The notes beneath the pieces were generated by a model that had not been told where the DNA came from, did not search any database, and saw only the letters and a program-made list of their open reading frames with translations. From contig JBBIGR010000002.1 in NCBI GenBank assembly GCA_037447435.1, forward strand, positions 32,001 to 96,000: a stretch of DNA of 64,000 nt, written 5' to 3'. Below, piece after piece: positions 29,792 to 51,920 of the stretch. Source of the stretch: Fibrobacteria bacterium (lineage in GTDB: Bacteria; Fibrobacterota; Chitinivibrionia; Chitinivibrionales; FEN-1185). Every line of letters begins with the position of its first letter. Position 1 is the first letter of the stretch. Position numbers and translations under genes: made by a program.

Positions 29792-31702
29792 CTAGTTTTC
29801 CATTTTAAGCTGAGCAACCAGCTTGACGGTTTTGGCTTCTTTGTTCGACAGCCGGACGCCCTGCGCCTTGACGCCTTTTACGAGGTAATCCGCCAAATTG
29901 AACGATTCCTCCAAAACCCGCAGATAGGCCTTGGGTTTGTATTCGACCTCTATGGTGCCTTCTTTTTCCGTTGTAAACATCTGCACGCTTGCGCCTTCGG
30001 GAACCAAAAAATACGCCTTTTGCATGATGAATTGCTCGATCGTGCAGCGTTTGACATACGGGACCAACGTCTGCGGATGCTTGTAGACAACCGAATAAAC
30101 CGTGTCTTTGTCCACGAACCCGCAAAACAGCATGCCTTTGTCGACAAAGAGTTTGTCGGGCACGTTGAGTACCGAATAGACGCCGTTTTTGCGGATAACG
30201 AGTATCCGGTCGTATTGCGACACGTCGAACAGCGAACTGCCGTTGACTTCGTAGCCCAAATAGCCGTTGTCGCGGTCGTATCGCAATTTCAAATTGCGTT
30301 GTGCGACTTCTCGGACGTCGACCTTTTCAAACGAAACGACCTCGGTTTTCCGGGGATGTGCGGCGCCGTATTTGATGATGATGTCCTGCAAAAACCCTAT
30401 CGAATAATCGATGATGTTTTCCAGAGAATGCTTGATTTCCTTGAGCCGCGTCTTGATTTCGTCCATGTCTTTTTTTGCTTTATTGATGTCGAAGGCCGAA
30501 ATCCTGCGTATCGGAATTTTTAAAAGCGTTTCGACGTCGTCGCCGGTCACCGTGCGCTTTATGATGTCTTTGAACGGTTCCAAACCGTCTATGACCGCCT
30601 GGAAAACGGTCTCCTGCGTTTTCTTGTCTTCTATTTTTTTGTAGACGCGGTTTTCTATGAAAATCTGTTCCAGGGTTTTGGCATGCAACTTGTCGCGCAA
30701 ATGCCCGTCTTCATTTTTAAGCTCGCGCTTTAATATGTCAACCAACCGGTCGGCATTATGCGCGATGACGTCCGAAACGCTCAGGGTAACGGGCTTGCCT
30801 TCCTTGATGACCACCAAATTAGTCGATATCGACACTTCACAATCGGTAAAGGCGTACAACGCGTCGACCGTGTCCTGGGTATGCACGCCGCGGGCGAGCC
30901 GGATTTCGATTTCGACCTGTTCCGAGGTGAAATCCGAAATACCCGCGATTTTTATTTTATTTTTCCGCGCCGCGTCTTCGACGCTCGAAATCAGGCTTTC
31001 CGTGGTCGTACCGTAGGGAATTTCCCGAACCACGATGCGTTTGTCGTCGCTGGTGTCGAGCCGTGCACGCACGCGCACCTTGCCGTTGCCGTCGTTGTAT
31101 TCCGAAGCATCAAGCATTCCGCCTGTCGGAAAATCCGGGTCAACGGAAAACGGTTCTTTACCCAAATAAGCGATTTGCGCCTGCAGCAGTTCTATGAGAT
31201 TGTGCGGCAATATCTTCGTGGCCATCCCCACCGCAATGCCTTCGGCCCCTTGCGCAAGCAGAACGGGAAGCTTTGCGGGCAACGCGATCGGTTCTTTGTT
31301 GCGGCCGTCGTACGAATCCGCGTAATCGGTGACTTCGGGGTTGAACAGCGTCTCTTTTGCCAACGGGGACAAACGGGTCTCGATATACCGCATCGCCGAC
31401 GCTTCGTCGCCGGTGAAAATATTGCCGAAATTTCCCTGTTTATCAAGAAAGAGGTCCTTGTTGGCAATGCCCACAAGGGCGGAGAAAATAGACTGGTCTC
31501 CGTGCGGGTGGTATTTCATGCACTGCCCCACCGCATTGGCGACCTTGTGGTATTTCCCGTCGTCCATTTCGAAAAGCGTATGGAGAATGCGGCGCTGTAC
31601 CGGTTTCAGACCGTCTTCAATGTCGGGAATGGCGCGGTCTTTGATGACATAGCTAGCGTATTCGATAAAGTAGTTCTTATATAAATTCGGTACGAATGCC
31701 AT
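29792..31702 (-). CDS. parC: DNA topoisomerase IV subunit A (short type)
   Basis: DGLKPVQRRIL, YHPHGD, SAMRYIE catalytic Tyr; 636 aa, no GyrA box seen. Confidence 0.88.
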   Translation of the reverse strand: MAFVPNLYKNYFIEYASYVIKDRAIPDIEDGLKPVQRRILHTLFEMDDGKYHKVANAVGQCMKYHPHGDQSIFSALVGIANKDLFLDKQGNFGNIFTGDEASAMRYIETRLSPLAKETLFNPEVTDYADSYDGRNKEPIALPAKLPVLLAQGAEGIAVGMATKILPHNLIELLQAQIAYLGKEPFSVDPDFPTGGMLDASEYNDGNGKVRVRARLDTSDDKRIVVREIPYGTTTESLISSVEDAARKNKIKIAGISDFTSEQVEIEIRLARGVHTQDTVDALYAFTDCEVSISTNLVVIKEGKPVTLSVSDVIAHNADRLVDILKRELKNEDGHLRDKLHAKTLEQIFIENRVYKKIEDKKTQETVFQAVIDGLEPFKDIIKRTVTGDDVETLLKIPIRRISAFDINKAKKDMDEIKTRLKEIKHSLENIIDYSIGFLQDIIIKYGAAHPRKTEVVSFEKVDVREVAQRNLKLRYDRDNGYLGYEVNGSSLFDVSQYDRILVIRKNGVYSVLNVPDKLFVDKGMLFCGFVDKDTVYSVVYKHPQTLVPYVKRCTIEQFIMQKAYFLVPEGASVQMFTTEKEGTIEVEYKPKAYLRVLEESFNLADYLVKGVKAQGVRLSNKEAKTVKLVAQLKMEN

Positions 31703-33501
31703 TACAACAAATTCTCCATGATAAAGTCTTTTCGCTGCGGCGTGTTTTTTCCCATGTAAAATTCCAGCGTTTCGGGGATGTTCTTGATCGATTTCACATT
31801 GACTTCCACAAGCCGTATGTCCTCGCCGATGAATTGCCCGAATTCATTGGGCGAGATTTCCCCCAGCCCTTTGAATCGCGTGGTCTCGGCGTCGCGTATT
31901 TCTTTCAGCGCACTGTCGCGTTCCTTTTCGCTGTAACAATAACGGGTCTCTTTTTTATTGCGCACCCGAAACAGCGGGGTCTCCAGTATGAACAAATGGT
32001 TCGATACAACCATTTCTTCGAAATACGTAAGGAAAAACGTCATGAGCAAATACCGGATGTGGAAACCGTCCACGTCGGCATCGGTCGCTATCACGATCCG
32101 GTTGTAGCGCAGCTGTTCGATGCTTTCTTCTATGCCGAGCGCCATCATCAAATTGTACAGTTCTTCGTTCTGGTAAATGGCCGCCCGCGTTTTCGCATAA
32201 ACGTTTTCAGGTTTGCCCTTGAGCGTGAATATAGCCTGGTTCAGCACGTCGCGAGCGGAGACGATGGATCCTGCGGCCGATTGTCCTTCTGTCAGGAATA
32301 TCGTGGATTCCTCGCCGTGCTTTTCATCTCCCAAATGATATTTGCAGTCCTTAAGGCATGGGATTTTAATTTCGATGCGTTTTGCCGCTTCCTTGGCTTC
32401 CTTTTTGACCGCATTCAATTCCTTGCGCAACCGTTCGTTCTGGACGATTTTGCTCTCGAGCGATTTTGCGCTTTCGGGGTTTTTATGCAGAAAATCGACG
32501 ACGCCGCTTTTCACTTCATTTAAAACCCAGGAGCGGATTTCCGTATTGCCGAGCTTGTTTTTGGTCTGCGATTCGAAAACCGGACTCTTGAGCTTTACCG
32601 CGATTGCGCCGGCAATGCCTTCCCGCACGTCCAGGCCCGAATAATCTTTTTTGTAAAACTCGTTGATCCCTTTGAGTATGCCTTCGCGAAACGCCGACAA
32701 ATGGGTACCGCCGTCACTGGTGAGCTGGCCATTCACAAAAGAGAAATACGTTTCGCCGTAGGTCTGCGTGTGCGTGAACGAAAATTCAAGAAACTTCGTC
32801 TTGTAATGGCCAATGGGATAAGTAATGCCTTCGCCCACTTCTTCCGCCAACAAGTCCAGAAGCCCGTTTTTGGATTCGAAAACCTGCTTGTTGAATATGA
32901 GTTTGAGCCCGGTGTTGAGGCAGGCGTAATTCCACATTCTGCTTTCGATATATTCGTAATTATACGTATATTCGCCGAAAAGTTCATTGTCGGGCGTGAA
33001 TTCGACGTAGGTCCCGTTGGGTTGGCCTTTTACCGGACCTTTGCGTTTGGAAATAAGTTTTCCTTTTGAGAAAACTGCTTCGAAGAATTCGCCGTCGCGA
33101 TACGACGTGACCTTAAAATGTGACGACATGCCGTTCACCGCTTTTGTGCCGACCCCGTTGAGACCAACCGAGAATTGGAACACGTCGTCATTGTATTTGG
33201 CGCCGGTATTTATCACCGATACGCATTCGATGACCTTACCGAGGGGAATTCCGCGACCGTAATCGCGCACCGAAAGGATGTTGTTTTCAATGGTGATTTC
33301 AACTTTTTTGCCAACGCCCATGATGAATTCATCGATGGAATTGTCTATCACTTCCTTAAGCAGAATGTAAATCCCGTCGTCGGGATTCGAGCCGTCGCCG
33401 AGCCTGCCTATGTACATGCCCGGCCGAAGCCTTATGTGGTCAAGGGAGCTTAAGGTCTTGATTGTTTTTTCGTCGTAAACTGGAGCTGTGGTTTTATTCA
33501 T
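31702..33501 (-). CDS. parE: DNA topoisomerase IV subunit B
   Basis: RPGMYIG, EVIDNSIDE, GLNGVG, TEGQSA, ATDADVDG, RFKGLGE; TAATG overlap with parC. Confidence 0.88.
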   Translation of the reverse strand: MNKTTAPVYDEKTIKTLSSLDHIRLRPGMYIGRLGDGSNPDDGIYILLKEVIDNSIDEFIMGVGKKVEITIENNILSVRDYGRGIPLGKVIECVSVINTGAKYNDDVFQFSVGLNGVGTKAVNGMSSHFKVTSYRDGEFFEAVFSKGKLISKRKGPVKGQPNGTYVEFTPDNELFGEYTYNYEYIESRMWNYACLNTGLKLIFNKQVFESKNGLLDLLAEEVGEGITYPIGHYKTKFLEFSFTHTQTYGETYFSFVNGQLTSDGGTHLSAFREGILKGINEFYKKDYSGLDVREGIAGAIAVKLKSPVFESQTKNKLGNTEIRSWVLNEVKSGVVDFLHKNPESAKSLESKIVQNERLRKELNAVKKEAKEAAKRIEIKIPCLKDCKYHLGDEKHGEESTIFLTEGQSAAGSIVSARDVLNQAIFTLKGKPENVYAKTRAAIYQNEELYNLMMALGIEESIEQLRYNRIVIATDADVDGFHIRYLLMTFFLTYFEEMVVSNHLFILETPLFRVRNKKETRYCYSEKERDSALKEIRDAETTRFKGLGEISPNEFGQFIGEDIRLVEVNVKSIKNIPETLEFYMGKNTPQRKDFIMENLL

Positions 33502-33632: not shown

Positions 33633-34547
33633 CTAATGTAAAAAGGTGATTTGCGGTTCCCTATTTACCACGCTCTTGCAAATCGCTACAAACTCCTCCG
33701 GGGTGAAATTGCTTTTGCAGGTATTGATCAGCCAGCCGCAGATTTCGAATTGCAATTCTTTGGCTTCCGGATCCGTGTGGTCTATTGTAGGAAGCAAGGC
33801 AAAGTCGTTATACTCAACGGTGAAGCCTCCCTGTTTTTCACTCACCCATGTCCCGATCTTTTCCCAGGCAAGTCTATCTCCTGTAAACGGATCGAAAAGT
33901 CCGCAGGCAATCACGGCAGCGTGAATTGCCCGACGGTAAATCGACATCGTCGCGCCGATCGAACAGATCCTGCCGCGCCTCTGGTCCCGTTCCAAAATGT
34001 ATTTGGCCTTGCGAAGTATCCATTTACGGTATTCCTTGAGCGTGCATATTCCCTCCAGAAAAGCCGGCAGTTCATACACCGGAATGACCGACGTGCCAAA
34101 TTCGCCGCATTTCCGATGCGCGATAATTTTCCGGCACATCGCAATAAATTCCGCAGGGGTCTGACAGTTTTTGCAGGAGTTGATTTTCCAGGAGCAAATC
34201 TCAAAATCCACCGTTTCGCCTGCCGGATCGCAATGGTCAAGCGTCGGCATCAGTAGAAACCGTTTTACATACGCTCTATTGTCTTTCGCTTTTTTCGCGT
34301 CCCATTCCTCTATCAGTTCCCATTGCAACGGCTCACCGGTAAACGGGTCCTTTTCTCCGCCGTTGCATACCGCTTCATGAATCGTATTTTCATACAGTGT
34401 AAAAGTCGCGCCGTTTGCACAGGGCCGGTTTCTTTTCCGGTCCTTTTCAAGTATTTCGCCGGTTTTTTCCCGAAGCCAAACATTGTAATAACCCTTGGTA
34501 ATCGTTCCCTGTAAATATTCCGGCAGAGGTTTTGATGGTCTGGGCAT
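33633..34547 (-). CDS. Hypothetical protein with two tandem HNH/His-Me-finger-like domains
   Basis: Internal duplication DPFTG..W..PT(L/I)DH.DP..FEIC.W.IN.CK. Confidence 0.7.
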   Translation of the reverse strand: MPRPSKPLPEYLQGTITKGYYNVWLREKTGEILEKDRKRNRPCANGATFTLYENTIHEAVCNGGEKDPFTGEPLQWELIEEWDAKKAKDNRAYVKRFLLMPTLDHCDPAGETVDFEICSWKINSCKNCQTPAEFIAMCRKIIAHRKCGEFGTSVIPVYELPAFLEGICTLKEYRKWILRKAKYILERDQRRGRICSIGATMSIYRRAIHAAVIACGLFDPFTGDRLAWEKIGTWVSEKQGGFTVEYNDFALLPTIDHTDPEAKELQFEICGWLINTCKSNFTPEEFVAICKSVVNREPQITFLH

Positions 34548-38128: not shown

Positions 38129-38282
38129 GTAGACCAATTTTTACAATCAAGTCATCATTTATAGCCAATTTGAAAATTGTAACAAATTGATAAACAAACA
38201 GATAAGTGTTTAATTACGTAGTCCAAACGGTCTACACTTTTTGGTTTTTCACAAACCAATGCGTGTTTTGGCGTGCTATATT
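38129..38282 (+). promoter_or_regulatory. Conserved promoter module, copy 1
   Basis: GTAGACCA 38129; IHF box TAACAAATTGATA 38180; GTAGTCC-AAAC-GGTCTAC 38218; TATATT 38277. Confidence 0.75.
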
Positions 38283-38350
38283 TATTTGCAAGGGAATTTA
38301 AATACCGAAAACCGGGATCCGTATCACACACAATAAAGAGGAGGTCGAGT

Positions 38351-40330
38351 ATGGTCCGAAAGTTCAGTTTGCTTATGTCAATTATCGCGCTTTGCGTCTT
38401 TGCCGTACAGGCGGCAACGTTAAGCGGCACGGTGAAAGTCGGCGACTCCACAGGAGCCGTTATCGCAAATGCGGTTGTCACGCTACGGGCGACCGGCGGC
38501 GGCGGGCAAACACTCGCCGATACGACGAACGCTTCGGGCGCATTCAGCTTTGCAAATGTTCCCGTCGGCACATACCGGCTTGTCGCGGCAAAGACCGGAT
38601 ACCTGGTAGCGAATTCAACAACAGTACAAATCACCGGCGCAACCGCTACCTATACGCAGAATTTGTTCCTTGTCGCAATCGGTCCGGCTGTTTTGGGAAA
38701 AATCACCGGTACCGTCATGGATTCCGTTGCCGGCACGGCGGCAACTCCCTTAAGCGGCGCCAAGGTAATCCTTAGTTCGGGTTTCGGCGCGACCGCGACA
38801 AGAGACACTGCCACGACGGCGGCTAATGGTACCTATACTTTTGATAGTGTCGCTCTCGGCACGTATACCCTTACGGCATCTGCCGCAAACCATTCCGGCC
38901 AAACCGCGACAACGACCATCATCAATGCAACAGCCCGCGTTGTAAACTTTAAATTGATCGGTGTTCAAACGGCATCCATCACCGGCACGGTTACCGACTC
39001 GGCCACTACAACAGCCATAGTCGGCGCAAAAGTGTATGTGCTTACGCGCGGCGGCGTCGCGACAATCGTTGATTCCGCCGTCACCGCAGCGGGCGGCGCA
39101 TTCACCTTCAGCGTCCCGAGCAACACAAATTATACGGTCCGTGCAAGCGCAAGTGCTTACGTTACAAGCAATATGAACGTGACGCTTACCGGAACAACCG
39201 GCCAAGCTTTAACGTTCAAACTTGTCAAAATAGCAATGGCGTCGATTACCGGGACCGTTACCGATTCTACGGCTTCGGGCGTTGCCCCGGTGGCTAATGC
39301 AAAAGTCTATCTGCGCACGACCGGGGGGACCATACTCGATTCGGCTACCACGCCCGCAGCAGGGACCTATACTTTTACTAATGTTCCGAGCGGCGTTTCT
39401 TACACGGTACGTGCAACTGCCGCCGGATACGTGACCGGCAACATTAATGTCAATGTGACCGGCACGTCCGCGGTTACGGTCAACATCCGACTTGTCAAGA
39501 CTCCGTCGGCCAATCTGTTTGTTCTGGTGAAAAAATCAAGCGATAGCACGGCGATCGCCGGCGCATCCGTAACTGTAAGCGGCACAACGGTATTGAATGC
39601 AACGACCCCGGCAAGCGGCTTGGTCGCTTTCACGGGTATCGGCATCGGCAATTACACAATCACGATTTCCGCCGCTAATTTTACCGCCCGCAGCGTTACA
39701 ACGGCCCTGACCGCAAACGCAGTCGACACGGTAAAAATTTATCTGACAGCCGCAGCAGGTGGAACAAAAGTACTCAAAGGAACCGTCGTGGATTCATCGT
39801 CGGCATCAAAGGCTCCTCTTGCCCATGTCGCCGTTATCCTTACCATCCAAGGCGCAGGCATCGGCGGAGGCACTTTGACGCTTATCGATTCCACCGACGC
39901 AACCGGCGCCTATAGCATCGCCGGCATCCCGTCGACACGGACTGGCGGCACGATAACCGCAACCCTGAGCGGCTATCGCGTCTATACCAACAATGCATTG
40001 ACGCTTGGCCAGGTCAACCTCGCCGACACGACGACATTCCGTATCGCGCTTCTCCCTGTCGCGTCATCGGTCAATAGCCCGGTTGCGATGGAAAACCCGG
40101 TTGCCCGCGGATTCACCATGACCCCCGGAATGCTTCGGTTAAGCAACTTGCGCGACGCCGGAGCGGTCAGGGTCTTTTCCGTAAACGGACAATTGCTGTT
40201 TAACAGCAAAATAGCCCCGAACACGTCGATTGTCGCAATCCCCGGCAATCTTGTAAAATCCGGAAGTGTGTACGTTGTCAGCGTTTCTCAGACAAATGCG
40301 GTGTATCGCAAACAGGTATTTGTCCCATAA
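38351..40330 (+). CDS. Secreted Thr/Ala/Gly-rich protein with about six tandem carboxypeptidase-regulatory-like beta-sandwich domains and a C-terminal sorting-type domain
   Basis: Repeats ITGTVTDS..GAKV..T..G.YTF..VP.G.Y; signal peptide from ATG 38351 behind GAGGAGG. Confidence 0.85.
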   Translation: MVRKFSLLMSIIALCVFAVQAATLSGTVKVGDSTGAVIANAVVTLRATGGGGQTLADTTNASGAFSFANVPVGTYRLVAAKTGYLVANSTTVQITGATATYTQNLFLVAIGPAVLGKITGTVMDSVAGTAATPLSGAKVILSSGFGATATRDTATTAANGTYTFDSVALGTYTLTASAANHSGQTATTTIINATARVVNFKLIGVQTASITGTVTDSATTTAIVGAKVYVLTRGGVATIVDSAVTAAGGAFTFSVPSNTNYTVRASASAYVTSNMNVTLTGTTGQALTFKLVKIAMASITGTVTDSTASGVAPVANAKVYLRTTGGTILDSATTPAAGTYTFTNVPSGVSYTVRATAAGYVTGNINVNVTGTSAVTVNIRLVKTPSANLFVLVKKSSDSTAIAGASVTVSGTTVLNATTPASGLVAFTGIGIGNYTITISAANFTARSVTTALTANAVDTVKIYLTAAAGGTKVLKGTVVDSSSASKAPLAHVAVILTIQGAGIGGGTLTLIDSTDATGAYSIAGIPSTRTGGTITATLSGYRVYTNNALTLGQVNLADTTTFRIALLPVASSVNSPVAMENPVARGFTMTPGMLRLSNLRDAGAVRVFSVNGQLLFNSKIAPNTSIVAIPGNLVKSGSVYVVSVSQTNAVYRKQVFVP

Positions 40331-40358
40331 AAATGGCGTAGTGTTTCTGTCCGGTATG

Positions 40359-40395
40359 CGCCCCGCTCTCTTCTACAAAGGAAGCGGGGCGTTTT
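40359..40395 (+). terminator. Rho-independent terminator
   Basis: CGCCCCGCT...AGCGGGGCG-TTTT. Confidence 0.7.
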
Positions 40396-40430
40396 ACTAT
40401 GCGCTCGAACATAAGCTGCAGGCTGCGCCC

Positions 40431-40584
40431 GTAGACCATTAACAAGAATAAAGCATCTGATTTAAATAGCACAAAACCATTTAACACGCTGATAATTATG
40501 AAATTAACTTTTTTATTCCGTAGTACATATGGTCTACATTTTTTTACATTTTTGTTATCGTTTTAATCTCTTTCGCGGTATATT
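40431..40584 (+). promoter_or_regulatory. Conserved promoter module, copy 2
   Basis: GTAGACCA 40431; IHF box TAACACGCTGATA 40482; GTAGTAC-ATAT-GGTCTAC 40520; TATATT 40579. Confidence 0.75.
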
Positions 40585-40616: not shown

Positions 40617-41447
40617 ATGATAAACATTTTCGATTATTACGATTACCAAAAATTCCTACGGGCTTACTACGAGAATAAAAAGGCCGTGGATCCGAATTTT
40701 TCCTATCGCTTCATTCAACAGCGCGTCGGAATAGACCCGGGCTATCTGCTTAAGGTTTTCCAGGGTAAAAAAGATCTTACCGATCGTTTTGTCCCCAAGT
40801 TCACCGCGCTGCTCAAGCTTTCTAAGAGAGAAAGCGAATATTTTTCTCTCATGGTCAGGTTCGGAAGGGCAAAAAAGAACGTCGACATCAAACGCCATTT
40901 CGAACATATGCTTTCTTTTGTCGAATTCAGCAGCAATAAAGTCGATGCCGACAAATACGAATTTTATCAAAAATGGTATTATACCGCGGTACGCGAACTC
41001 ATCGGCATCATCCGTTTTTCCGACGATTACGACGAACTCGCCCGTATGGTGGAGCCGGCAATCAGGGCGCCGGAAGCAAAAAAGGCGATAGAACTTTTAG
41101 TCAGACTCGGGTTCATCCAGAAAAACAAGGACGGCATTTACGAAGTGACGTCCCGGTTCATCACCACCGGGGAAGAATGGCGTTCAATAGCCATTCGGAC
41201 GTTCCAAAAAGAGGCGCTCGGTCTTGCCCAGAACGCACTGGACTCCATTGCAAAAGACCAACGCGACATTTCCACGCTGACCATGAGCCTGTCGGCCGAC
41301 GGTTTTTTAAAGGTTCGCGAATGCCTCGCAAAATGCCGCAAGGAAATGCTGGATATCGCCCATAAAGACCTGGACGTGTCCCGGTCTTATCATGTCAATT
41401 TTTCCCTGTTTCCGATAACGAAACAAAACCCGGAGGTGGCCAAATGA
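40617..41447 (+). CDS. TIGR02147 family protein (putative DNA-binding regulator)
   Basis: IFDYYDYQKFL..FSYRF, YEFYQKWYYTAVRELI, RDISTLT, VNFSLFP; 276 aa. Confidence 0.85.
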   Translation: MINIFDYYDYQKFLRAYYENKKAVDPNFSYRFIQQRVGIDPGYLLKVFQGKKDLTDRFVPKFTALLKLSKRESEYFSLMVRFGRAKKNVDIKRHFEHMLSFVEFSSNKVDADKYEFYQKWYYTAVRELIGIIRFSDDYDELARMVEPAIRAPEAKKAIELLVRLGFIQKNKDGIYEVTSRFITTGEEWRSIAIRTFQKEALGLAQNALDSIAKDQRDISTLTMSLSADGFLKVRECLAKCRKEMLDIAHKDLDVSRSYHVNFSLFPITKQNPEVAK

Positions 41448-42718
41448 AAACCGCCTCTGGAATTATTTGCTTCGTTTCTTTGCTTTTGGGAACCGTGTTT
41501 TTCCAATGCTCGAGAACCACCGTCGTGGGCGGCCCCGGGACAGGCTCCGAAACGACCAACGGGATAACGGCAAAAGCGGAATATCCCAGCGGGCAACCCG
41601 CATCATTCGCTTCGGTGTTTTTAAAACCGAAGAATTTCCTGCCCGACACTGCAGGTTCCGACACGTCAAGCATTCCCGACGCCACGACCGACTCGGCGGG
41701 GACGTTTGTCATCGACTCTGTTGACACCGGCGAATATACCGTTGAAATAAACGACAAAAAGGCGAATGCGGTCATTTTTACCGTTAAAAAGGACTCGGTT
41801 TCGAAAAAGCCGGTCGATTTCGGAAAACAAGTGCTGCAGCCGACGTCCACGCTCAGCGGCCACATAGACCGCAGCAACTTTCCGCTCTCGGTTTCGGTGT
41901 ATGTCCAGATTTACGGAATGAACAAAACGACGACCGTGGATAAAAACGGAGCATTCTCCTTTTCCGATATCCCCGGCGGAATCCGGGAATTACGGATAAT
42001 CGCCAGCGACAAATCGCTGGGTACCATAGACCACGATTCTATCGTCGTTAGCCCGGGATTCAACCATGACCTCGGTAATTTCCAATTACCCGTCAACTTC
42101 TGGCAAGACACGCTCATCGTCCGTGCGATTCTGGATTCCAACGGTCTGGCAAATGTCCCCGTATCCAAAGTCTCTTCCCTGCGGGACGGAAGGATTTTCC
42201 AACTCGATTTGAGCCATCGCGGGCTTAAACGGTTGCCGCAGCAAATCGGTCAATTACGCATCACGCATTTATACCTCGACAGCAATTCGCTTGAATCGTT
42301 ACCGAGCGAAATCGGATCCATCGCGTCGCTGGTGACGCTCCACGCATCCGCCAATCGCCTTGGAACCATCCCTGCCGCAATAGGCAACCTCAAGGGCCTG
42401 CAGCATCTTGACTTAAGCAACAACCTGATCGATTCTCTCCCCGTATCGGTAAGCGGACTGGTTTCCCTTGTCGATCTGTGGCTGCAAAATAATGCGTTGA
42501 CCGTATTGCCGGAATCGTTGGGAAATCTCGGCCAATTGCGCATGCTCAATCTTGAGACCAACAAAATCGCATCATTGCCTTTGTCAATAACACGATTGCA
42601 CAGCCTTGCGTTTCTTTCCGTATTGCATAACCGGCTCGCAACGGTGCCGCCATCCGTTGCGAGTTGGCTCGATATGTATTCCACCGAAAAGGAATGGAGA
42701 GTATCGCAATTGCAATAA
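41444..42718 (+). CDS. Lipoprotein with beta-sandwich domains and C-terminal leucine-rich repeats
   Basis: Signal ending FFQ-C, GTGSETTNG, 23-aa LRRs (L.L..N.L..LP..IG.L); ATGA overlap with TIGR02147 gene. Confidence 0.85.
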   Translation: MKTASGIICFVSLLLGTVFFQCSRTTVVGGPGTGSETTNGITAKAEYPSGQPASFASVFLKPKNFLPDTAGSDTSSIPDATTDSAGTFVIDSVDTGEYTVEINDKKANAVIFTVKKDSVSKKPVDFGKQVLQPTSTLSGHIDRSNFPLSVSVYVQIYGMNKTTTVDKNGAFSFSDIPGGIRELRIIASDKSLGTIDHDSIVVSPGFNHDLGNFQLPVNFWQDTLIVRAILDSNGLANVPVSKVSSLRDGRIFQLDLSHRGLKRLPQQIGQLRITHLYLDSNSLESLPSEIGSIASLVTLHASANRLGTIPAAIGNLKGLQHLDLSNNLIDSLPVSVSGLVSLVDLWLQNNALTVLPESLGNLGQLRMLNLETNKIASLPLSITRLHSLAFLSVLHNRLATVPPSVASWLDMYSTEKEWRVSQLQ

Positions 42719-43978: not shown

Positions 43979-44093
43979 ACAGTTGACTTGATGTTCTGGA
44001 TTTGCTTATACTTCTATATTATTGTATTGGTTCATTTTGCCCTCGAATTTAATTTGTTCCATATTGCCAAACTATCGCAGAAGGAGTCTTGTT

Positions 44094-47000
44094 ATGCGCA
44101 GGGACTGTTTTAAAACGTTCTTTTTTGCTTCCGCCGTGTTCGTCTGCTGGCTTTGCTCCCCGGTTTTTTCCGACGAAGCATTCGACAAATTGATGGATGC
44201 TAAAAATTATTCGGAAGCGATCAACTATGCCGACAAGAAAATCCCGACCACCAACCGCGAAGCCGCAGTATGGGTAAAACTCGGCGTGGCCAACCTCGAA
44301 CTCGGGCTTGCCGAAAAAGCGCTCGCCTGTTATCTGGTTGCTAACCGGATGGACGCAAAAAACTACGATGCATTGCTGGGAAGCGCGAAAGTATATAATT
44401 CCCTTTCGCAACCTGCCAATGCCGCCGCAGCAGCCAAAAAGGCGCTCGACCAAAACTTCACTCCCGAGGCAAGCTGGGAATACGCCCGTGCGTGCATTGC
44501 GCTGAACAAACCGGCCGACGCAAAAAAGGCATTGGAAAAAGTGGCCGAATCCGACCCCAACAATTCGGCCGCAGTCAAAGAACTCGGGCTAATTTACTTT
44601 AACGAAAAAAACTACGCAAAAGCGGTCGACCTTCTTAAAATAGCCAATGTCAAGCAGCCCGATCCCGCGCTCACGCTAAAAATCGGTCTGGCCTACAAGG
44701 AATCCAACGGTCCCGATTCGGCACTTGTCTATCTTAAGGCCGCAAAAGACAAAAAGCCGACCGCTCCCGAAGCGGCATTCGAACTGGCCAAAATTTATTT
44801 CAATACGCAGCAATTCGACAAGGCTGCGGCCGAATTCGAAGACGCATCCGCCAAGATCCAACTCGGTGCGTTCGACTTCTGGGCATGGGGAACATCCTTG
44901 TCAAAAACAAACGGCAATGCCGATAAGATCGTCAAGATATTCCAACAGTCGCTCGATAAGTTCGGCGCATCTAAAAGCAAGGAAGCCCTCGAGGCGCATG
45001 CGGCGGTCGGCACTTATTATCTCGACAAGAAAAACTATCAGGCCGCAGTTTCGCATTTCCAGGCCATTTATGCGGCCGACAGTACAGGCAAGCTCGTGCC
45101 CGACATCAATTTTTCCCTCGCCCTTTGCAGTCAAGGGCTCGATTTGCCCAAAAAAGCCATTGCCCAATTGGAACGCGAGCTTGTCGTAAACAGCGGGAAC
45201 GTCGGCGCCTACGCGATGCTCGGCGACTTGTACGAAAAAGCCGGGCTCGCCGAAAAGGCGAAGGCCGTGTACGAAAAAATGCTCTCGCTCAACCCCAATA
45301 ATCCCAAGATACAAATGGCGCTCGGCGACTATTATCTAAAAGCAAAAAAGCACCAGGAAGCGCTGAAATATTACCAAAAAAGCTACACGCTGGAACGAAG
45401 CGCGCTTGCGGCACAGGGAATGGCGGTCTGCGCCTTTGCGCTCGAACAGCCCGACATGGCGCGCGATGCGGCCGAGAGCGCCTTGCATCTCGATGCCAAT
45501 TTGTGGGAACCCCATGTTGTTTTGTCCAAAATTTACTTAAAAGATAAAAACTTCAAAGACGCCAAAGACCAATTCGAATTCATGGTTAAGAAACAACCGA
45601 ATTCGAAGGAATACTGGCTGCAGCTTGCGGTATGTTACGAACAGCTCAACGACCCGGTCCGGTTGGCCGACATCGATAAAAAAATCATTGCGCTCGACCC
45701 GAAAAACATCGCGTCCCGTACCAGACTTGCCCGTTTTACGTTGTCAATGGGCGATACGAAAGCTGCGATCGAACAATATAAGGAACTTGCCGCTATCGCG
45801 CCCAAAGACGCCGAAGTGTTCAAGAACCTCTACGACTTGTCTGTCAAGAACAATGCTATGACGGAGGCCGCGCAGTATTTGCGTTCCTACGTACTTCTCA
45901 AACCGACCGACGCAAGCGCCCAGAAATCGCTCGGCGACATGCTGTACGACAAAAAAGACAATGCCGGCGCATTGTCCGCGTACCGCGCGGCGGTCAAGGC
46001 CGATCCTGCGATAAAAGGCGTTTACAAAAAGTATATCGAATTGCTCGGTACCGGCGCGGAACCCACGGAATTCGCAAGTGCGCTCAACGGCGCAATCGCA
46101 ACGAGTGAAGCCGATGCGCAAACCTATGCGATGCTCGGCACTATTTTTCTCAAACAGGGACAATGCCCCAAAGCCATAGAAATGTTCCAGAAATCAATTC
46201 AGCTCGATCCGCATAACACGAACGTCCTTACGATGCTCGCCCAATGCCAGGCTAAAACCGGCAACGCGAACGAGGCGATCATTTCGTACGAACAAGCGCT
46301 GGCAATGAACGACAAGGCGGTTGAAGAACTCAAAGCGCTCGGCGATTTATACCAGCAACAATCCAAGACGTCTCAAGCCGTGGCTTCGTATAAGAAATAC
46401 CTGGCAAAAGTTCCGGCAAATTCGAAAATCGCAAAAATCATTGCCGATTACGAATACGGTCAGAAAAATTATACCGAGGCGAATGTTTACTTTGCCAAGG
46501 TTACCGGCGAAACCGCGAAATCAGCGGACATGCTTTTCAAATACGGCCAATCGTGCTATTTGGCAAAAGATTTCAAAAAGGCCAAAGAACTGTATCTGCA
46601 GCTTGCTGCGGTTACCCCGAAAAATGCCGACGTGTTTAAAACGTTGTTCGACATTGTTTCCAAAGACAGCACGGCGAAAACGGAAGCAGTGTCGTATATG
46701 CAAAAGTACGTGGCATTAAAACCCGCCGACGCGTCTGCGCAAAAAGACCTCGGCGACATGCAGTACGACCTTAAAAACAACCTCGCCGCCCTGAGCGCTT
46801 ACCGTGCGGCGCTTGCCGCCGACCCCGCCATAAAGGGTGTTTACAAGAGATACGTCGAGCTCGTCGTGCTCAAGGGCACTTCCGAGGAACTGGTCAAAGC
46901 GCTTACCGGTGCGATCAGCGCCCAGGAAGCCGACGCCGCCATGTACGGGTCCCTCGGTGCCGTATACCAAAAACAGGGTAATTGCGCAAAAGCAATAGAC

Positions 47001-50000
47001 ATGTACCAAAAGGCGATCCAGCTCGACCCGCGAAATACCGCAGTGGTGTCGAGCCTTGCCCAGTGCCAGGCAAAGACCGGCGCGACCAGCGATGCCGTGG
47101 TATCGTACGAGCAGGCCATCGCCTTAAACGACAAGGCCGTCGACGAGCTCAAGGAACTCGGCGAATTATACATTGCCCAGAAAAAAACCGCCCAGGCGGT
47201 GACGATGTTTAAAAAGTACGTCGCGAAAAAACCGTCTGACGTTCGCGTCGCCAAATTTATCGCAGACAACGAATTTTCCCAGAAAAACTATGATGAGGCG
47301 ATCAAATATTACGCAATGGTCACCGGTACTGCGGCGAATTCCGCCGAGTTCCTTTCCAAATACGGCCAATCGTGCTACTTTGTAAAAAACTATAAAAAAG
47401 CAAAAGAACTGTTCGTCCAGCTCGCGACGATTTCGCCGAAAAATGCCGACGTATTTAAAACGTTATACGACATTGCGGAAAAAGATCCCGCAACAAAAGC
47501 CGAATCGCAAACCTATTTGCAGAAATATGTTTCCCTCAATCCGGGTGATGCGTCTGCGCAAAAAGACCTCGGCGACATGCAGTACGATGCAAAGAACCAA
47601 AGTGGCGCCCTTGCGGCGTACCGTGCGGCGATAGAGGCCGACCCGTCGATCAAAGGGATATACAAACGCTATGTCGAATTGGTAATGGCAAAAGGAACGT
47701 CCGAAGAACTTGTCAAGGCGCTTACGGGAGCCATCAAGGCGTCGGAAGCCGATGCCGCGATGTTCGCCTCGCTCGGCGCAGTATACCAAAAGCAACTTGC
47801 CTGGGCAAAAGCCGTGGACATGTATCAAAAAGCAATGCAGGCCGACCCGCGCAACGTTTCCGTTTTGTCGTCGCTTGCGAAATGCCAGGCAAAATCGGGC
47901 AATATCAACGATGCCGTTGTTTCCTATGAACAGGTCGTTGCCATGAATCCTGCGGCAATCGAAGAATCGCAGGAACTCGGCGACCTGTACGCAAAACAGG
48001 GCAAAATGAGTCAGGCAATGGCGATGTACAAAAAATGCCTGGAGAAAAAGCCCGGCGACTATCGTACAGCCAAAGCGGTCGGCGATTTTTCCTATACGCA
48101 GAAGAACTATGATGACGCAATCAAATACTATTCGATGGTTTCCGGGCCCGAAACCAAAAACGCCGATTTCTTGTTCAAATTCGGGCAGTCGTGCTATTTT
48201 TCCAAAAATTACAAAAAAGCGGCGGAGTTGCTCAATCAACTCTCGGCGCTTACGCCGGCAAACGCGGAAATTTACAAAACATTATATGATATCGCCGTTA
48301 AAAACAACGGTACGAAAACCGAACAAATTGCCTATCTCAAGAAATACGTCGCCGTAAAACCCGGTGATGCGCAAATGCAAAAAACCCTGGGCGATTTGCA
48401 GTTCGAGCAAAAAAATTCGGCAGCGGCGATTGCCGCATATAAAGCGGCGATCGCCGCCGATCCCGCGATCAAAGGCTTTTACAAAAACTATGTCGAACTC
48501 GTTTCCGCAAACGGGCTTCCCGAAGATATTGTCAAGGCCATGAAGGGTGCCGTCAATGCGGGCGAAGCGGATGCCGCAATGTACGAAGCGATCGGCGGGC
48601 TCGAACAAAAAGCCGGCGCGTACGCAAAAGCGATGGACTATTATCAAAAGTCTATGCAGCTCGACCCGCGTAACGTCAAGGTCCTTTCGAGCCTCGCGCA
48701 ATGCCAGGCCAAAACCGGCAATGTAAACGACGCGGTCATTTCCTATGAACAGGCGGTTGCGATGAATGCCGATGCGATAGAAGAATACCGCATACTCGGC
48801 GAATTGTACCAGCAGCAGAAAAAGCAGTCGCAATCCATAGCGATGTATAAAAAATATTTGGAAAAACGTCCTTCGAATTATACCGTCGCTTTGGCTGTCG
48901 GCGATTTTGCATACGGCCAAAAAAACTATGAAGATGCGGCCAAATATTATGCCATGGTCGGCGGCGAAATTTCGCGTAAAGCCCCGTTCCTGTTCAAATA
49001 TGCACAATCGTGTTATAACGCGAAAAACAACAAGAAAGCCGTTGAAGTATTGTCTCAACTGGCAACGCTTACGCCGCTTAATGCCGAAGTCTTTAAAATG
49101 CTGTACGACATAACCGTTGCGGATCCGACGACTAAAAAAGACGCCAGCGGGTACCTTAAGAAATATGTAAAGCTCAGTCCTACCGATGCCGCAGCCCAAA
49201 AGAATCTCGGCGATTTGTTGTTCGAAGAAAAAAATACGGTCGGCGCGCTTGCGGCATACAAGGCAGCGCTTACTGCCGATCCCTCTCTCAAGGGTTTTTA
49301 CAAACGATATGTTGAACTGGTTACGACGCAAGGTAATGCCGAGGAAACGGTCAAGGCGTTAAAAGGAGCCATATCCGCAGGCGAAGCCGATGCCCCGATG
49401 TACTTCAATCTCGGCAGCGTCTATCAGAAAGCGGCAAATTATTCAAAAGCGATAGAGATGTTTACAAAAGCGTTGCAGCTCGATGCGCAAAACATGAAAG
49501 CATTGTCTGCGCTTGCTTTGTGTCAGGCAAAATCGGGAAATGTGAAGGAAGCGACAATCACCTATGAACAGGTGGTCGCGCTCGATCCGAATAACGTCTC
49601 GGAACTTCGCGCGCTTGCCGATTTATACCTTCGGCAAAACAAAAACGACCAGGCTATGGGCATGTATAAAAAATGCCTTGAAAAGAACCCGGGCGATTTC
49701 AAGACCGCTATTGCGGTCGGCGACTATTCCTTAAAAATCAAGGATTATGACGCCGCGGTGAAATATTATGCCATGGTCGGCGGTGCCGACGCGAAAACGT
49801 CGGCGTTTTTGCTGAATTACGGCGAAGCGTGCTACAAGAGCAAGACCTGTTCCAAGTCCGTCGATATTTACAAAGAATTATTGGTCCTGACCCCGACCAA
49901 CGCCACGGTCGTTAAAACATTGTACGACATTGCGGTCAAGGCAAATAACACTGCCGACGAGATTGTTTACTTAAAGAAATATGTCGCCCTGAAACCCGGC

Positions 50001-51920
50001 GATGCGCAATCGCAAAAAGACTTGGGCGATTTGCTGTACGATCAAAAAGAAACGTCCGGCGCTCTCTCGGCATACCGTGCCGCCCTTAAAGCCGATCCGT
50101 CGTTAAAAGGCTTTTACAAGCGATATGTCGAACTCGTGACCCCGCGCGGCACACAGGAAGAAATCTCCAAGGCGCTTGCCGGAGCCGCTGCAGCAGGCGA
50201 AGCCGATGCGACGATGTATGCGACGCTCGGTGCAATTTACCAAAAACAGGCTTCTTACGAAAAAGCAATTACGGCGTATCAAAAAGCGTTGTCCCTCGAC
50301 CCTCGTAACATTGCAGTGCTTTCGTCGCTTGCGATGTGCCAGGCAAAGAGCGGCAACACGAACGAAGCGGTTATTTCGTATGAGCAGGCAACAGCCATGA
50401 ACCCCGACGCTGTCGCAGAATACAAGGCGCTCGGCGATTTGTATTCCAAGCAGAACAAAGCCGGCCAGGCGCTTGCAATGTATAAGAAATACCTGGAAAA
50501 AAATCCCAAAGATATGGATGTGGCCAATTCCGTTGGCCAGGCGGCCTTTGCAACCAAGAAATACGACGAAGCAGTGAAATACTTTGCCATGATGTCCGGC
50601 CCGGAAACAAACAGCATGGAATTCCTGTATGTGTACGGCCAATCCTGTTATTATTCGAAAGACTACAAAAAGACCATTGAACTTTTCGAAAAATACAGAA
50701 CAAACAATGCAAAACTCGCGACCAAACATGCGGGTGCAATGACGGTTGCAAAATTACTTGCCGATTCCTACGACAAATCTAACAACAGCGAAAAGGCCCT
50801 TGAACTGTATTCGCTGTATACCAAGACCGCTGCCGGCGCCAAAGACGCCGAAGCCTGCTTCCGACGGGCACAACTTACCGAAGCTTCCAGCCCGGCAACT
50901 GCGGCTAAACTCTATGAAGAGAATACGATATCGTTTCCCAAAGACTATCGCAATTTCCTGTATGCCGGCCTATACTATGCAAAGCAGAAAACAATGCTCG
51001 ATAAAGCGTTGGGTATGATGAAGAAATGTGCCGCGCTTGCCGATTCCATTCCGTCGTTATGGCTGGAAATGGGACAGGTGTACGGAAAACTCGGAAAAGA
51101 CAAGGAAGAACTTGAAGCGTATCGCAAGTTCATCCAACTCGATCCGGAAAACGCCGAAGCCTGCGGAAAAATCGGGGAAATCCTGCTTGCCAAGAAAAAG
51201 ACGAACGACGCCATGGTATTTTTGGAAATGGCCAATGCGCTCAGAGGTAACGACCCGAAATTCATGGTGCTTCTGGCTCAAGGATATCTGACGACCGACC
51301 GTTCCAAGGAAGCACTTGATTTATTGGAAAAGGCCGACAAGGTCAAGCCCGACGACGAAAACGTCAAGAGCATGCTTTTCGAATTATACAAGCAGACCAA
51401 TCAGCCGCAAAAAGCGCTTTCAGCCATTAAGGTAATTGCCGAAAAACGCCGCGACACGAAAACGAAACTCAAATATGCCGAGGCATTATATCTTGCGGGT
51501 TCCTACGCTCTTGCCGAAAGTGCGATTAAAGACATTACGGCAACCGAGCCGGAAAACATCGATGCGCTTATGATTTACGGTAAAACGCAATCGGTGCAGA
51601 ACAAGCTCGACGATGCCTTGGAAACGTACAAAGAAATATCCTATATCAATCCGAATTATGCGCCTGCATTGTACGAACGCGCCGAAATCTACGTTACCCA
51701 AACCAAGATCCAGTGGGCCAAAACGTTTTACGAACGCGCGCTCAAAGCCGATCCTAATTTCGCCCTGGCCGAACTCGGGCTTGCAAAGCTCGCAAAAAGC
51801 CAAAAAGATGTTGCAGGTTATCAGCTCCATCTGGAAAAAGCAAAAAAGCTGGATCCGAACAACAGGCTCATTCTCGATGAAACCGGCGGTGTAGCAAAGC
51901 CAAAAAAAACCGGTAAATAA
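44094..51920 (+). CDS. Giant exported TPR protein (2608 aa)
   Basis: AAGGAG RBS, signal peptide, TPR-like helices throughout. Confidence 0.92.
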   Translation: MRRDCFKTFFFASAVFVCWLCSPVFSDEAFDKLMDAKNYSEAINYADKKIPTTNREAAVWVKLGVANLELGLAEKALACYLVANRMDAKNYDALLGSAKVYNSLSQPANAAAAAKKALDQNFTPEASWEYARACIALNKPADAKKALEKVAESDPNNSAAVKELGLIYFNEKNYAKAVDLLKIANVKQPDPALTLKIGLAYKESNGPDSALVYLKAAKDKKPTAPEAAFELAKIYFNTQQFDKAAAEFEDASAKIQLGAFDFWAWGTSLSKTNGNADKIVKIFQQSLDKFGASKSKEALEAHAAVGTYYLDKKNYQAAVSHFQAIYAADSTGKLVPDINFSLALCSQGLDLPKKAIAQLERELVVNSGNVGAYAMLGDLYEKAGLAEKAKAVYEKMLSLNPNNPKIQMALGDYYLKAKKHQEALKYYQKSYTLERSALAAQGMAVCAFALEQPDMARDAAESALHLDANLWEPHVVLSKIYLKDKNFKDAKDQFEFMVKKQPNSKEYWLQLAVCYEQLNDPVRLADIDKKIIALDPKNIASRTRLARFTLSMGDTKAAIEQYKELAAIAPKDAEVFKNLYDLSVKNNAMTEAAQYLRSYVLLKPTDASAQKSLGDMLYDKKDNAGALSAYRAAVKADPAIKGVYKKYIELLGTGAEPTEFASALNGAIATSEADAQTYAMLGTIFLKQGQCPKAIEMFQKSIQLDPHNTNVLTMLAQCQAKTGNANEAIISYEQALAMNDKAVEELKALGDLYQQQSKTSQAVASYKKYLAKVPANSKIAKIIADYEYGQKNYTEANVYFAKVTGETAKSADMLFKYGQSCYLAKDFKKAKELYLQLAAVTPKNADVFKTLFDIVSKDSTAKTEAVSYMQKYVALKPADASAQKDLGDMQYDLKNNLAALSAYRAALAADPAIKGVYKRYVELVVLKGTSEELVKALTGAISAQEADAAMYGSLGAVYQKQGNCAKAIDMYQKAIQLDPRNTAVVSSLAQCQAKTGATSDAVVSYEQAIALNDKAVDELKELGELYIAQKKTAQAVTMFKKYVAKKPSDVRVAKFIADNEFSQKNYDEAIKYYAMVTGTAANSAEFLSKYGQSCYFVKNYKKAKELFVQLATISPKNADVFKTLYDIAEKDPATKAESQTYLQKYVSLNPGDASAQKDLGDMQYDAKNQSGALAAYRAAIEADPSIKGIYKRYVELVMAKGTSEELVKALTGAIKASEADAAMFASLGAVYQKQLAWAKAVDMYQKAMQADPRNVSVLSSLAKCQAKSGNINDAVVSYEQVVAMNPAAIEESQELGDLYAKQGKMSQAMAMYKKCLEKKPGDYRTAKAVGDFSYTQKNYDDAIKYYSMVSGPETKNADFLFKFGQSCYFSKNYKKAAELLNQLSALTPANAEIYKTLYDIAVKNNGTKTEQIAYLKKYVAVKPGDAQMQKTLGDLQFEQKNSAAAIAAYKAAIAADPAIKGFYKNYVELVSANGLPEDIVKAMKGAVNAGEADAAMYEAIGGLEQKAGAYAKAMDYYQKSMQLDPRNVKVLSSLAQCQAKTGNVNDAVISYEQAVAMNADAIEEYRILGELYQQQKKQSQSIAMYKKYLEKRPSNYTVALAVGDFAYGQKNYEDAAKYYAMVGGEISRKAPFLFKYAQSCYNAKNNKKAVEVLSQLATLTPLNAEVFKMLYDITVADPTTKKDASGYLKKYVKLSPTDAAAQKNLGDLLFEEKNTVGALAAYKAALTADPSLKGFYKRYVELVTTQGNAEETVKALKGAISAGEADAPMYFNLGSVYQKAANYSKAIEMFTKALQLDAQNMKALSALALCQAKSGNVKEATITYEQVVALDPNNVSELRALADLYLRQNKNDQAMGMYKKCLEKNPGDFKTAIAVGDYSLKIKDYDAAVKYYAMVGGADAKTSAFLLNYGEACYKSKTCSKSVDIYKELLVLTPTNATVVKTLYDIAVKANNTADEIVYLKKYVALKPGDAQSQKDLGDLLYDQKETSGALSAYRAALKADPSLKGFYKRYVELVTPRGTQEEISKALAGAAAAGEADATMYATLGAIYQKQASYEKAITAYQKALSLDPRNIAVLSSLAMCQAKSGNTNEAVISYEQATAMNPDAVAEYKALGDLYSKQNKAGQALAMYKKYLEKNPKDMDVANSVGQAAFATKKYDEAVKYFAMMSGPETNSMEFLYVYGQSCYYSKDYKKTIELFEKYRTNNAKLATKHAGAMTVAKLLADSYDKSNNSEKALELYSLYTKTAAGAKDAEACFRRAQLTEASSPATAAKLYEENTISFPKDYRNFLYAGLYYAKQKTMLDKALGMMKKCAALADSIPSLWLEMGQVYGKLGKDKEELEAYRKFIQLDPENAEACGKIGEILLAKKKTNDAMVFLEMANALRGNDPKFMVLLAQGYLTTDRSKEALDLLEKADKVKPDDENVKSMLFELYKQTNQPQKALSAIKVIAEKRRDTKTKLKYAEALYLAGSYALAESAIKDITATEPENIDALMIYGKTQSVQNKLDDALETYKEISYINPNYAPALYERAEIYVTQTKIQWAKTFYERALKADPNFALAELGLAKLAKSQKDVAGYQLHLEKAKKLDPNNRLILDETGGVAKPKKTGK
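45903..50700 (+). repeat. About six 819-bp (273-aa) intragenic super-repeats
   Basis: P.DA..QK.LGD marker at 45903, 46722, 47541, 48360, 49179, 49995; right boundary approximate. Confidence 0.9.

Follow-up and report, generated by a model that had tools for sequence, protein, structure and literature searches.

A duplicated promoter module in a Fibrobacteria bacterium: predicted operator and promoter of an adjacent TIGR02147 activator

The stretch of 64,000 nucleotides analysed here (the window) comes from a Fibrobacteria bacterium (GenBank assembly GCA_037447435.1, contig JBBIGR010000002.1, positions 32,001 to 96,000) and contains a four-part promoter module in two copies, one upstream of a gene for a secreted repeat protein and the other upstream of a gene of the TIGR02147 family. 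The module is a real, conserved promoter module, and it probably provides the operator and promoter through which the adjacent TIGR02147 protein acts as an activator. This protein would bind the 18-bp palindrome of the module as a dimer and would switch on its own two-gene operon together with the neighbouring secreted repeat protein, so that the duplicated module would be a pair of activator-dependent sigma70-type promoters. The boxes, including those that match the consensus of integration host factor (IHF), and the two genes behind them are as follows.

38129..38136, + strand: putative remote half-site of the operator, GTAGACCA, copy A, position about -160 relative to the predicted start, at the same offset in the metagenome locus L031
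38180..38192, - strand: IHF-consensus box, copy A, reading TATCAATTTGTTA, kept in L031
38218..38235, no strand assigned: predicted 18-bp operator palindrome GTAGTCC-AAAC-GGTCTAC, copy A, predicted centre about -62.5, best matrix match in the genome
38277..38282, + strand: -10 box TATATT, copy A, 41 nt past the palindrome, with an extended -10 TG and the poor -35 AACCAA
38351..40330, + strand: gene of the predicted target, a secreted protein of 659 aa with six CarboxypepD_reg (immunoglobulin-like) repeats
40431..40438, + strand: putative remote operator half-site GTAGACCA, copy B
40482..40494, - strand: IHF-consensus box, copy B, reading TATCAGCGTGTTA
40520..40537, no strand assigned: predicted 18-bp operator palindrome and autoregulatory site GTAGTAC-ATAT-GGTCTAC, copy B, second-best matrix match in the genome
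40579..40584, + strand: -10 box TATATT, copy B, 41 nt past the palindrome, with the poor -35 TATCGT
40617..41447, + strand: TIGR02147/DUF4423 gene, 276 aa, with an XRE/HigA-like helix-turn-helix (HTH; residues 7-90), an ArsR-like winged helix (107-185) and a HetR-hood-like domain (189-267)
40734..40763, + strand: codons for DPGYLLKVFQ (residues 40-49), the turn and recognition helix of the HTH, whose similarity follows that of the operators

The copies lie 2302 nt apart, with the four boxes at offsets 0, +51, +89 and +148 in both, exactly where an earlier note on this DNA had placed them. That note had also described the intervening bases as divergent, and the counts agree: 39 of 45 positions are identical within the boxes and, outside them, 45 of 109 (41%), where base composition alone predicts 31%. 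The boxes at +51 are reverse-strand matches to WATCARNNNNTTR in both copies, a sequence that the earlier note gives as the IHF consensus. The pattern GTAG[AT]nC-N4-Gn[AT]CTAC has exactly two matches in the 5.05-Mb genome, both at this locus, and GTAGACC followed by GGTCTAC 60-140 nt further on likewise has exactly two. Locus L031 is syntenic (DNA 72-75% identical, regulator 91% identical) and carries a third copy with the same four offsets upstream of the orthologous repeat-protein gene; its boxes agree with those of the window copies at 40 and 41 of 45 positions, its spacers at 51% and 44%. The two window copies probably share descent, the boxes and spacing having been kept while the spacers drifted, because spacer identity exceeds the expected value and L031 lacks copy B.

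The TIGR02147 protein had been proposed as the reader of the palindrome, and comparison across the family supports this. The family set comprised 229 distinct loci, namely those of this genome, up to 30 each from six genomes of the same class (26-63 TIGR02147 matches each) and close homologues; 224 had sufficient upstream DNA. Perfect YG..CR palindromes occur upstream of 59 of these 224 genes, against 1.6 in dinucleotide shuffles (maximum 5), and the enrichment is restricted to lengths 16, 17 and 18 among the lengths 13-24. The half-sites fall into distinct words by helix class, which the earlier note had considered possible for paralogues: DPG(F/Y)L(V/L/F)KVF goes with GTAG(A/T)(A/C)C, DPGYLVKVFQ with GTTGACC, DH(A/G)LxxKI with GGTGACA, DAS(F/Y) with GTGGA, AGFF with GTTTTC, SAFLYYV with GTTCAC and SP(S/A)LFKEV with GTACTC. 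Among 2962 cross-family pairs from 88 loci with clear sites, motif similarity peaks with residues 37-59 (r 0.43) and falls to about 0 for the greater part of the C-terminal half; in partial correlations the motif gives 0.39 with the helix given the C-terminus and 0.02 with the C-terminus given the helix. The length of the HTH turn varies with that of the site, a one-residue gap accompanying 18-bp sites in 29 of 34 cases and an insertion accompanying 16- or 17-bp sites in 47 of 54. At locus L341 a homologue of the target (38% identical) adjoins a different paralogue cassette, with the helix SSGFFSKI, and has a different 17-bp palindrome, GCTTTC-N5-GGAAGC, 41 nt before TATATT. Two genomes of other classes were held out, with 60 loci in all (30 of 34 from G098 and 30 of 40 from G091). 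Perfect palindromes were found at 15 of the 30 G091 loci, and their half-site was predicted exactly from the helix in 8 of 15 cases and from the C-terminus in 7 of 15, against 0.4 at random. On this comparative evidence the N-terminal HTH helix of TIGR02147 proteins very probably reads the half-site, each paralogue having its own word.

The distance from palindrome to -10 box shows two sharp peaks, at 41 and 51 nt; 72 of 88 loci have a gap of 40-42 or 50-52, control gaps being found in 6-8, and a gap of 41 recurs in 10 of the 15 perfect sites of held-out G091. The sequence logo of the 72 promoters consists of TATATT and a weak TTG at -35 to -33 (T in 32, T in 31 and G in 48 of 72), and both -35 hexamers in the window, AACCAA and TATCGT, are suboptimal. 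Site positions given here assume that TATATT occupies -12 to -7, which centres the window sites at -62.5. PMC4132738 describes class I activation by CRP from sites near -61.5 and -71.5. Two peaks near -62 and -72 combined with a weak -35 thus fit class I activation by polymerase recruitment, and TIGR02147 proteins quite likely activate by this route, from a site near -62 or -72 on one face of the helix at promoters with a good -10 and a weak -35. The earlier note had expected the geometry of the module to recur at other family loci: the gap between palindrome and -10 box does (41 or 51, each ±1), but the positions of the remote site and IHF box vary, and base-exact spacing of all four parts is a property of this locus only.

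With a matrix for the window paralogue that was derived from 13 loci in other genomes, the two window palindromes have the highest scores in the genome, 21.3 and 19.0 bits; the next match scores 15.9. The predicted regulon of this paralogue in the assembly therefore consists of the two window promoters, in keeping with the proposal of autoregulation and control of the neighbouring secreted gene. The exact palindrome pattern, which was derived partly from loci found by the pattern itself, has 16 sites in 14 of 81 genomes, against 2 control sites; 9 of the 16 precede a TIGR02147 gene with a DPG(F/Y)L.KVF helix, and 2 precede other genes with a phased -10. An unlinked second site, GTAGTCC-N4-GTACTAC with a -10 box at gap 51, was seen at L335 (G070:C22:3663) and may mark a distant target of this regulator class in G070.

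Three other paralogue motifs have 14, 6 and 16 sites in this genome; a phased -10 accompanies 12, 6 and 15 of these, and a -10 at control gaps 2, 0 and 2. Domains were scanned in 32 of the 41 downstream open reading frames (ORFs); the remaining ones were 7 regulator genes, one short antisense ORF and the target in the window. Glycoside hydrolase (GH) domains were found in 5 of 6 scanned ORFs of the GTGGAW regulon (GH2, 3, 5, 16), in 9 of 17 of the GTRTYM regulon (GH3, 8, 16, 18, 31, 81) and in 0 of 9 of the GTTTTC regulon. A loose scan of the genome for any palindrome with a phased -10 gave 455 hits against 388-419 in controls (perfect palindromes, 68 against 35-49), barely above the control, and the informative scans are therefore the motif-specific ones only. 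Single palindromes between divergent promoters, with a phased -10 on both sides, were seen at G000:C26:31139, C4:42579, C3:191909 and C55:4789.

IHF-assisted looping between the remote half-site and the palindrome, also proposed in the earlier note, is the least secure part of the reading; the remote half-site and the IHF box are genuine, yet not obligatory, elements. A remote half-site lies upstream of 38 of 82 family loci, against 4.9 when the motifs of other loci are used, in the same orientation in 34 of 40 matches and at a distance of 55-136 nt in most loci having one. Exact IHF boxes occur just upstream of the palindrome at 8 of 82 loci against 0.95 (36 against 19 with at most one mismatch), and in both window copies an exact consensus, kept in L031, lies between the two putative operator sites. 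Two HU/IHF genes are present in the genome; IHF models score best on them, yet below the curated cut-offs. The enrichment of both elements thus stands, but a remote half-site occurs at only 7 of 40 promoter directions in the three other regulons of this genome, and looping is therefore accessory at best. An IHF-like protein would bend the DNA and the remote half-site would add cooperative binding as an optional accessory; we propose this only tentatively.

The 40617 protein matches TIGR02147 (Fsuc_second) with 284.4 bits (cut-off 50, positions 1-271 of 272) and DUF4423 (PF14394) with 113.7 bits (cut-off 30). Its predicted model has a mean predicted local distance difference test score of 92.6. 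In this predicted structure, residues 7-90 have middling fold matches to HigA/XRE HTH domains (Z 8.3-9.3) and residues 107-185 equally middling ones to ArsR-type winged helices (Z about 8). Folded by itself, the C-terminal domain matches the hood of HetR (4ynl_B, Z 8.0, root-mean-square deviation 2.2, 76 residues aligned; 4hri_B, Z 7.2), the next unrelated match having Z 3.8. Sequence searches did not place the protein with HetR: DUF4423 was its only Pfam match at E<=0.001, a profile search of PDB sequences at E<=10 returned no HetR (its weak matches include the CI repressor), and a single-sequence PDB search returned 0 matches. A Foldseek search gave no match at E<=0.001, HetR was not among the best 50 matches of a fold search with the whole model, and an atlas search with residues 182-272 reached a best score of 0.83, at most a lead.

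The second gene of the operon encodes a lipoprotein and is, with the hood-like domain, the candidate for signal input.

41181..41417, + strand: codons of the hood-like domain, the candidate peptide-binding part, a fold match to the HetR hood
41444..42718, + strand: lipoprotein gene, 424 aa, candidate sensor, translationally coupled by an ATGA overlap, with Cys22, a tag, an immunoglobulin-like stalk and C-terminal leucine-rich repeats
41543..41563, + strand: conserved post-Cys tag GSETTNG (residues 34-40 of the lipoprotein)

A downstream ORF is present at 211 of the 229 loci, with a Cys at position 10-36 in 207 of the 211 and an ATGA overlap in 96. The partners share the consensus C-x-GxGSETxN, and 79-90 of the 211 have the strict form of the tag. 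Among 20 partners in this genome (of the 22 listed besides that of the window), 15 have CarboxypepD_reg, 6 LamG and 1 Kelch domains. In its leucine-rich stretch the window lipoprotein has weak NCBIfam matches to families of type III effectors; they score far below the cut-offs and were rejected. According to PMC4649674, HetR has three domains with an N-terminal HTH, binds a palindrome on the scale of 17 bp and regulates itself, and the PatS hexapeptide binds the HetR hood by beta-strand addition and releases the protein from DNA. By analogy, the co-translated lipoprotein would set the activity of the regulator, its post-Cys tag binding the hood as PatS binds HetR; we regard this part as possible and somewhat doubtful.

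Several observations weigh against the reading of the module as the operator and promoter of a TIGR02147 activator, or against parts of it. L031, with its closely related regulator orthologue, has no module before the regulator gene, and at 5 of the 16 exact sites in the 81 genomes a phased -10 and a TIGR02147 gene within 1.5 kb are both lacking. The regulon patterns and gap windows were picked after the data had been seen. In nearest-neighbour prediction the helix gave unique top ranks in 37 of 196 cases and the C-terminal domain in 42 of 196 (random donors 2-7), and disagreements between the two predictors were won 41 to 49 (p 0.46). The helix is thus no better a predictor than the C-terminal domain, so descent and orthology carry much of the signal; kin are not independent, and close homologues are over-sampled in the family set. 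Held-out G098 has perfect palindromes at just 2 of 30 loci and half-sites beside a good -35 at many, and the palindrome/-10 geometry is therefore not universal. As for the lipoprotein, tag class follows the regulator tree (a quick tree, 35 of 43 in one clade), which shows co-inheritance and leaves the link to hood residues without independence; covariation of the tag with hood residues W188, Q197 and T220 was for this reason rejected as independent evidence. The tag should moreover lie outside the cytoplasm, away from a cytoplasmic regulator.

In the 150 nt upstream of the TIGR02147 genes at the G098 loci (L211-L240), half-sites such as GTATCAT in the expanded FSWREF clade precede a good -35, TTGACT, by 13-15 nt, and another copy or a short palindrome stands about 75 nt upstream. 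This geometry is possibly that of class II activation or of repression.

On the window sites themselves, the TIGR02147 protein might act as a repressor that bridges the remote half-site and the palindrome via an IHF bend and is released by a signal from the lipoprotein. HigA-type autorepressors as the best fold matches of its N-terminal domain, the CI repressor among its weak sequence matches, the retention of remote site and IHF box in three copies and the G098 half-sites abutting a good -35 all speak for repression. We nevertheless consider it unlikely, as the palindrome stops 41 or 51 nt short of the -10 box, outside the core promoter, two peaks one helical turn apart with a weak -35 fit polymerase recruitment, and the remote site is so rare in the three other regulons.

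In two further explanations the TIGR02147 protein does not read the palindrome; the earlier note had raised the first and, of the second, the recombination sites. An unlinked regulator of the GntR/DasR type could read the GGTCTAC sites, with the TIGR02147 gene merely a target. The genome has one gene with a UTRA domain, and GGTCTACA, which is followed by T runs, resembles by eye only half of the 16-bp palindromic DasR/NagR dre site. That gene, however, sits on another contig, and the palindrome varies with the helix of the adjacent TIGR02147 protein across many motif classes and is exchanged together with the regulator in L341; since the words are many and paralogue-specific, one global regulator cannot explain the palindromes, and we hold this explanation highly improbable. 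A regulatory meaning would be absent altogether if the copies were remnants of a duplicated promoter, or sites of recombination on either side of a cassette at 38218-40520. Duplication does agree with the probable shared descent of the copies, to which the excess of spacer identity over expectation and the lack of copy B in L031 both point. Yet the boxes are 87-91% identical over spacers of 41-51%, with no indels and in two organisms, and related palindromes usually stand singly before a gene start, at a fixed distance to the -10. No recombinase family was found among the 8 neighbouring ORFs scanned, and contigs of one sequencing run, possibly that of the source, compared with the locus contained no joint, although contigs cannot show absence. 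Loss of regulatory meaning by either path has a very low probability in our judgement, and activation by the adjacent TIGR02147 protein is the reading retained here.

The region between the two promoters includes a terminator-like element, recognised by eye.

40359..40395, + strand: terminator-like GC hairpin and T run, separating the target gene from the second promoter

No catalytic domain was found in domain scans of the target protein. The genome has 28 TIGR02147 matches, 25 of them almost complete, besides one paralogue that is in two pieces and one that is truncated; the split and truncated paralogues are at G000:C28:60972-61804 and G000:C53:13080-13508, the truncation falling after the first 141 model positions. 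Elsewhere in the window, a 304-aa ORF (33633-34547, - strand) consists of two halves that resemble each other and contain DH..P motifs, which look HNH-like by eye; it has no Pfam or NCBIfam match. By eye, 29792-33501 (- strand) contains two genes recognisable as a type II topoisomerase A/B pair, both short (636 and 599 aa), and 44022-51920 (+ strand) encodes a secreted protein of 2632 aa made up almost entirely of tetratricopeptide-like repeats.

No paper on the function of TIGR02147 was found in a literature search that covered neither subscription papers nor supplements. DUF4423 was met in one table row of a Bdellovibrio proteome paper, and the word 'regulator' was not found in a text search of PMC6204037. 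The search also yielded no description of how secreted enzymes are regulated in Fibrobacterota. The operators, the code, the regulons and the lipoprotein partner, as inferred here, are additions to a family without described function. Fibrobacterota play a major part in the degradation of cellulose and chitin. For a family that can reach about 60 paralogues in one genome, the reading supplies a testable function, predicted operators for individual members and regulons that can be computed from sequence. The targets of these probable activators would be secreted proteins, among them enzymes that degrade polysaccharides; two regulons of this genome are largely glycoside hydrolases. If the reading is true, there is a structural relative of the HetR peptide-binding hood outside the cyanobacteria and a natural set of orthogonal activator-operator pairs.

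The proposed system resembles class I activation by CRP in its palindromes centred at about -62 or -72, its peaks one helical turn apart and its weak -35. It differs in that no CRP fold or cyclic nucleotide-binding domain is found among the TIGR02147 protein matches, and whereas CRP is one global regulator, a single genome has dozens of TIGR02147 paralogues, which appear to have separate words and small regulons. With HetR the protein shares an arrangement of three domains with an N-terminal HTH, the hood fold, a palindrome of similar size and predicted autoregulation; in contrast, identity in the hood is 5%, and the fold matches are HigA/XRE for the N-terminal domain and ArsR-type for the middle one. 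The peptides of HetR derive from PatS and HetN (RGSGR), whereas the candidate peptide here is the polar and acidic lipoprotein tag GSETTNG.

Possible, though rather doubtful, is the idea that TIGR02147-lipoprotein cassettes form an undescribed class of trans-envelope signalling, with a surface lipoprotein whose sensing domain varies, an N-terminal GSETTN-type tag released or presented to the HetR-like hood of the partner activator, palindromes read by way of a short helix code and dozens of parallel switches for secreted enzymes in Fibrobacterota. Trans-envelope sensor-regulator pairs for polysaccharide enzymes include extracytoplasmic function sigma/anti-sigma pairs, sigma-I/RsgI and hybrid two-component systems. 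Unlike these, TIGR02147 is predicted to be an upstream-binding HTH protein rather than a sigma factor or response regulator, and its partner lipoprotein has no evident cytoplasmic domain. The TIGR02147 cassettes resemble those systems in being many paralogous two-gene units whose exported domain varies (LamG in 6 of 20, Kelch, leucine-rich repeats) and in having predicted regulons rich in glycoside hydrolases.

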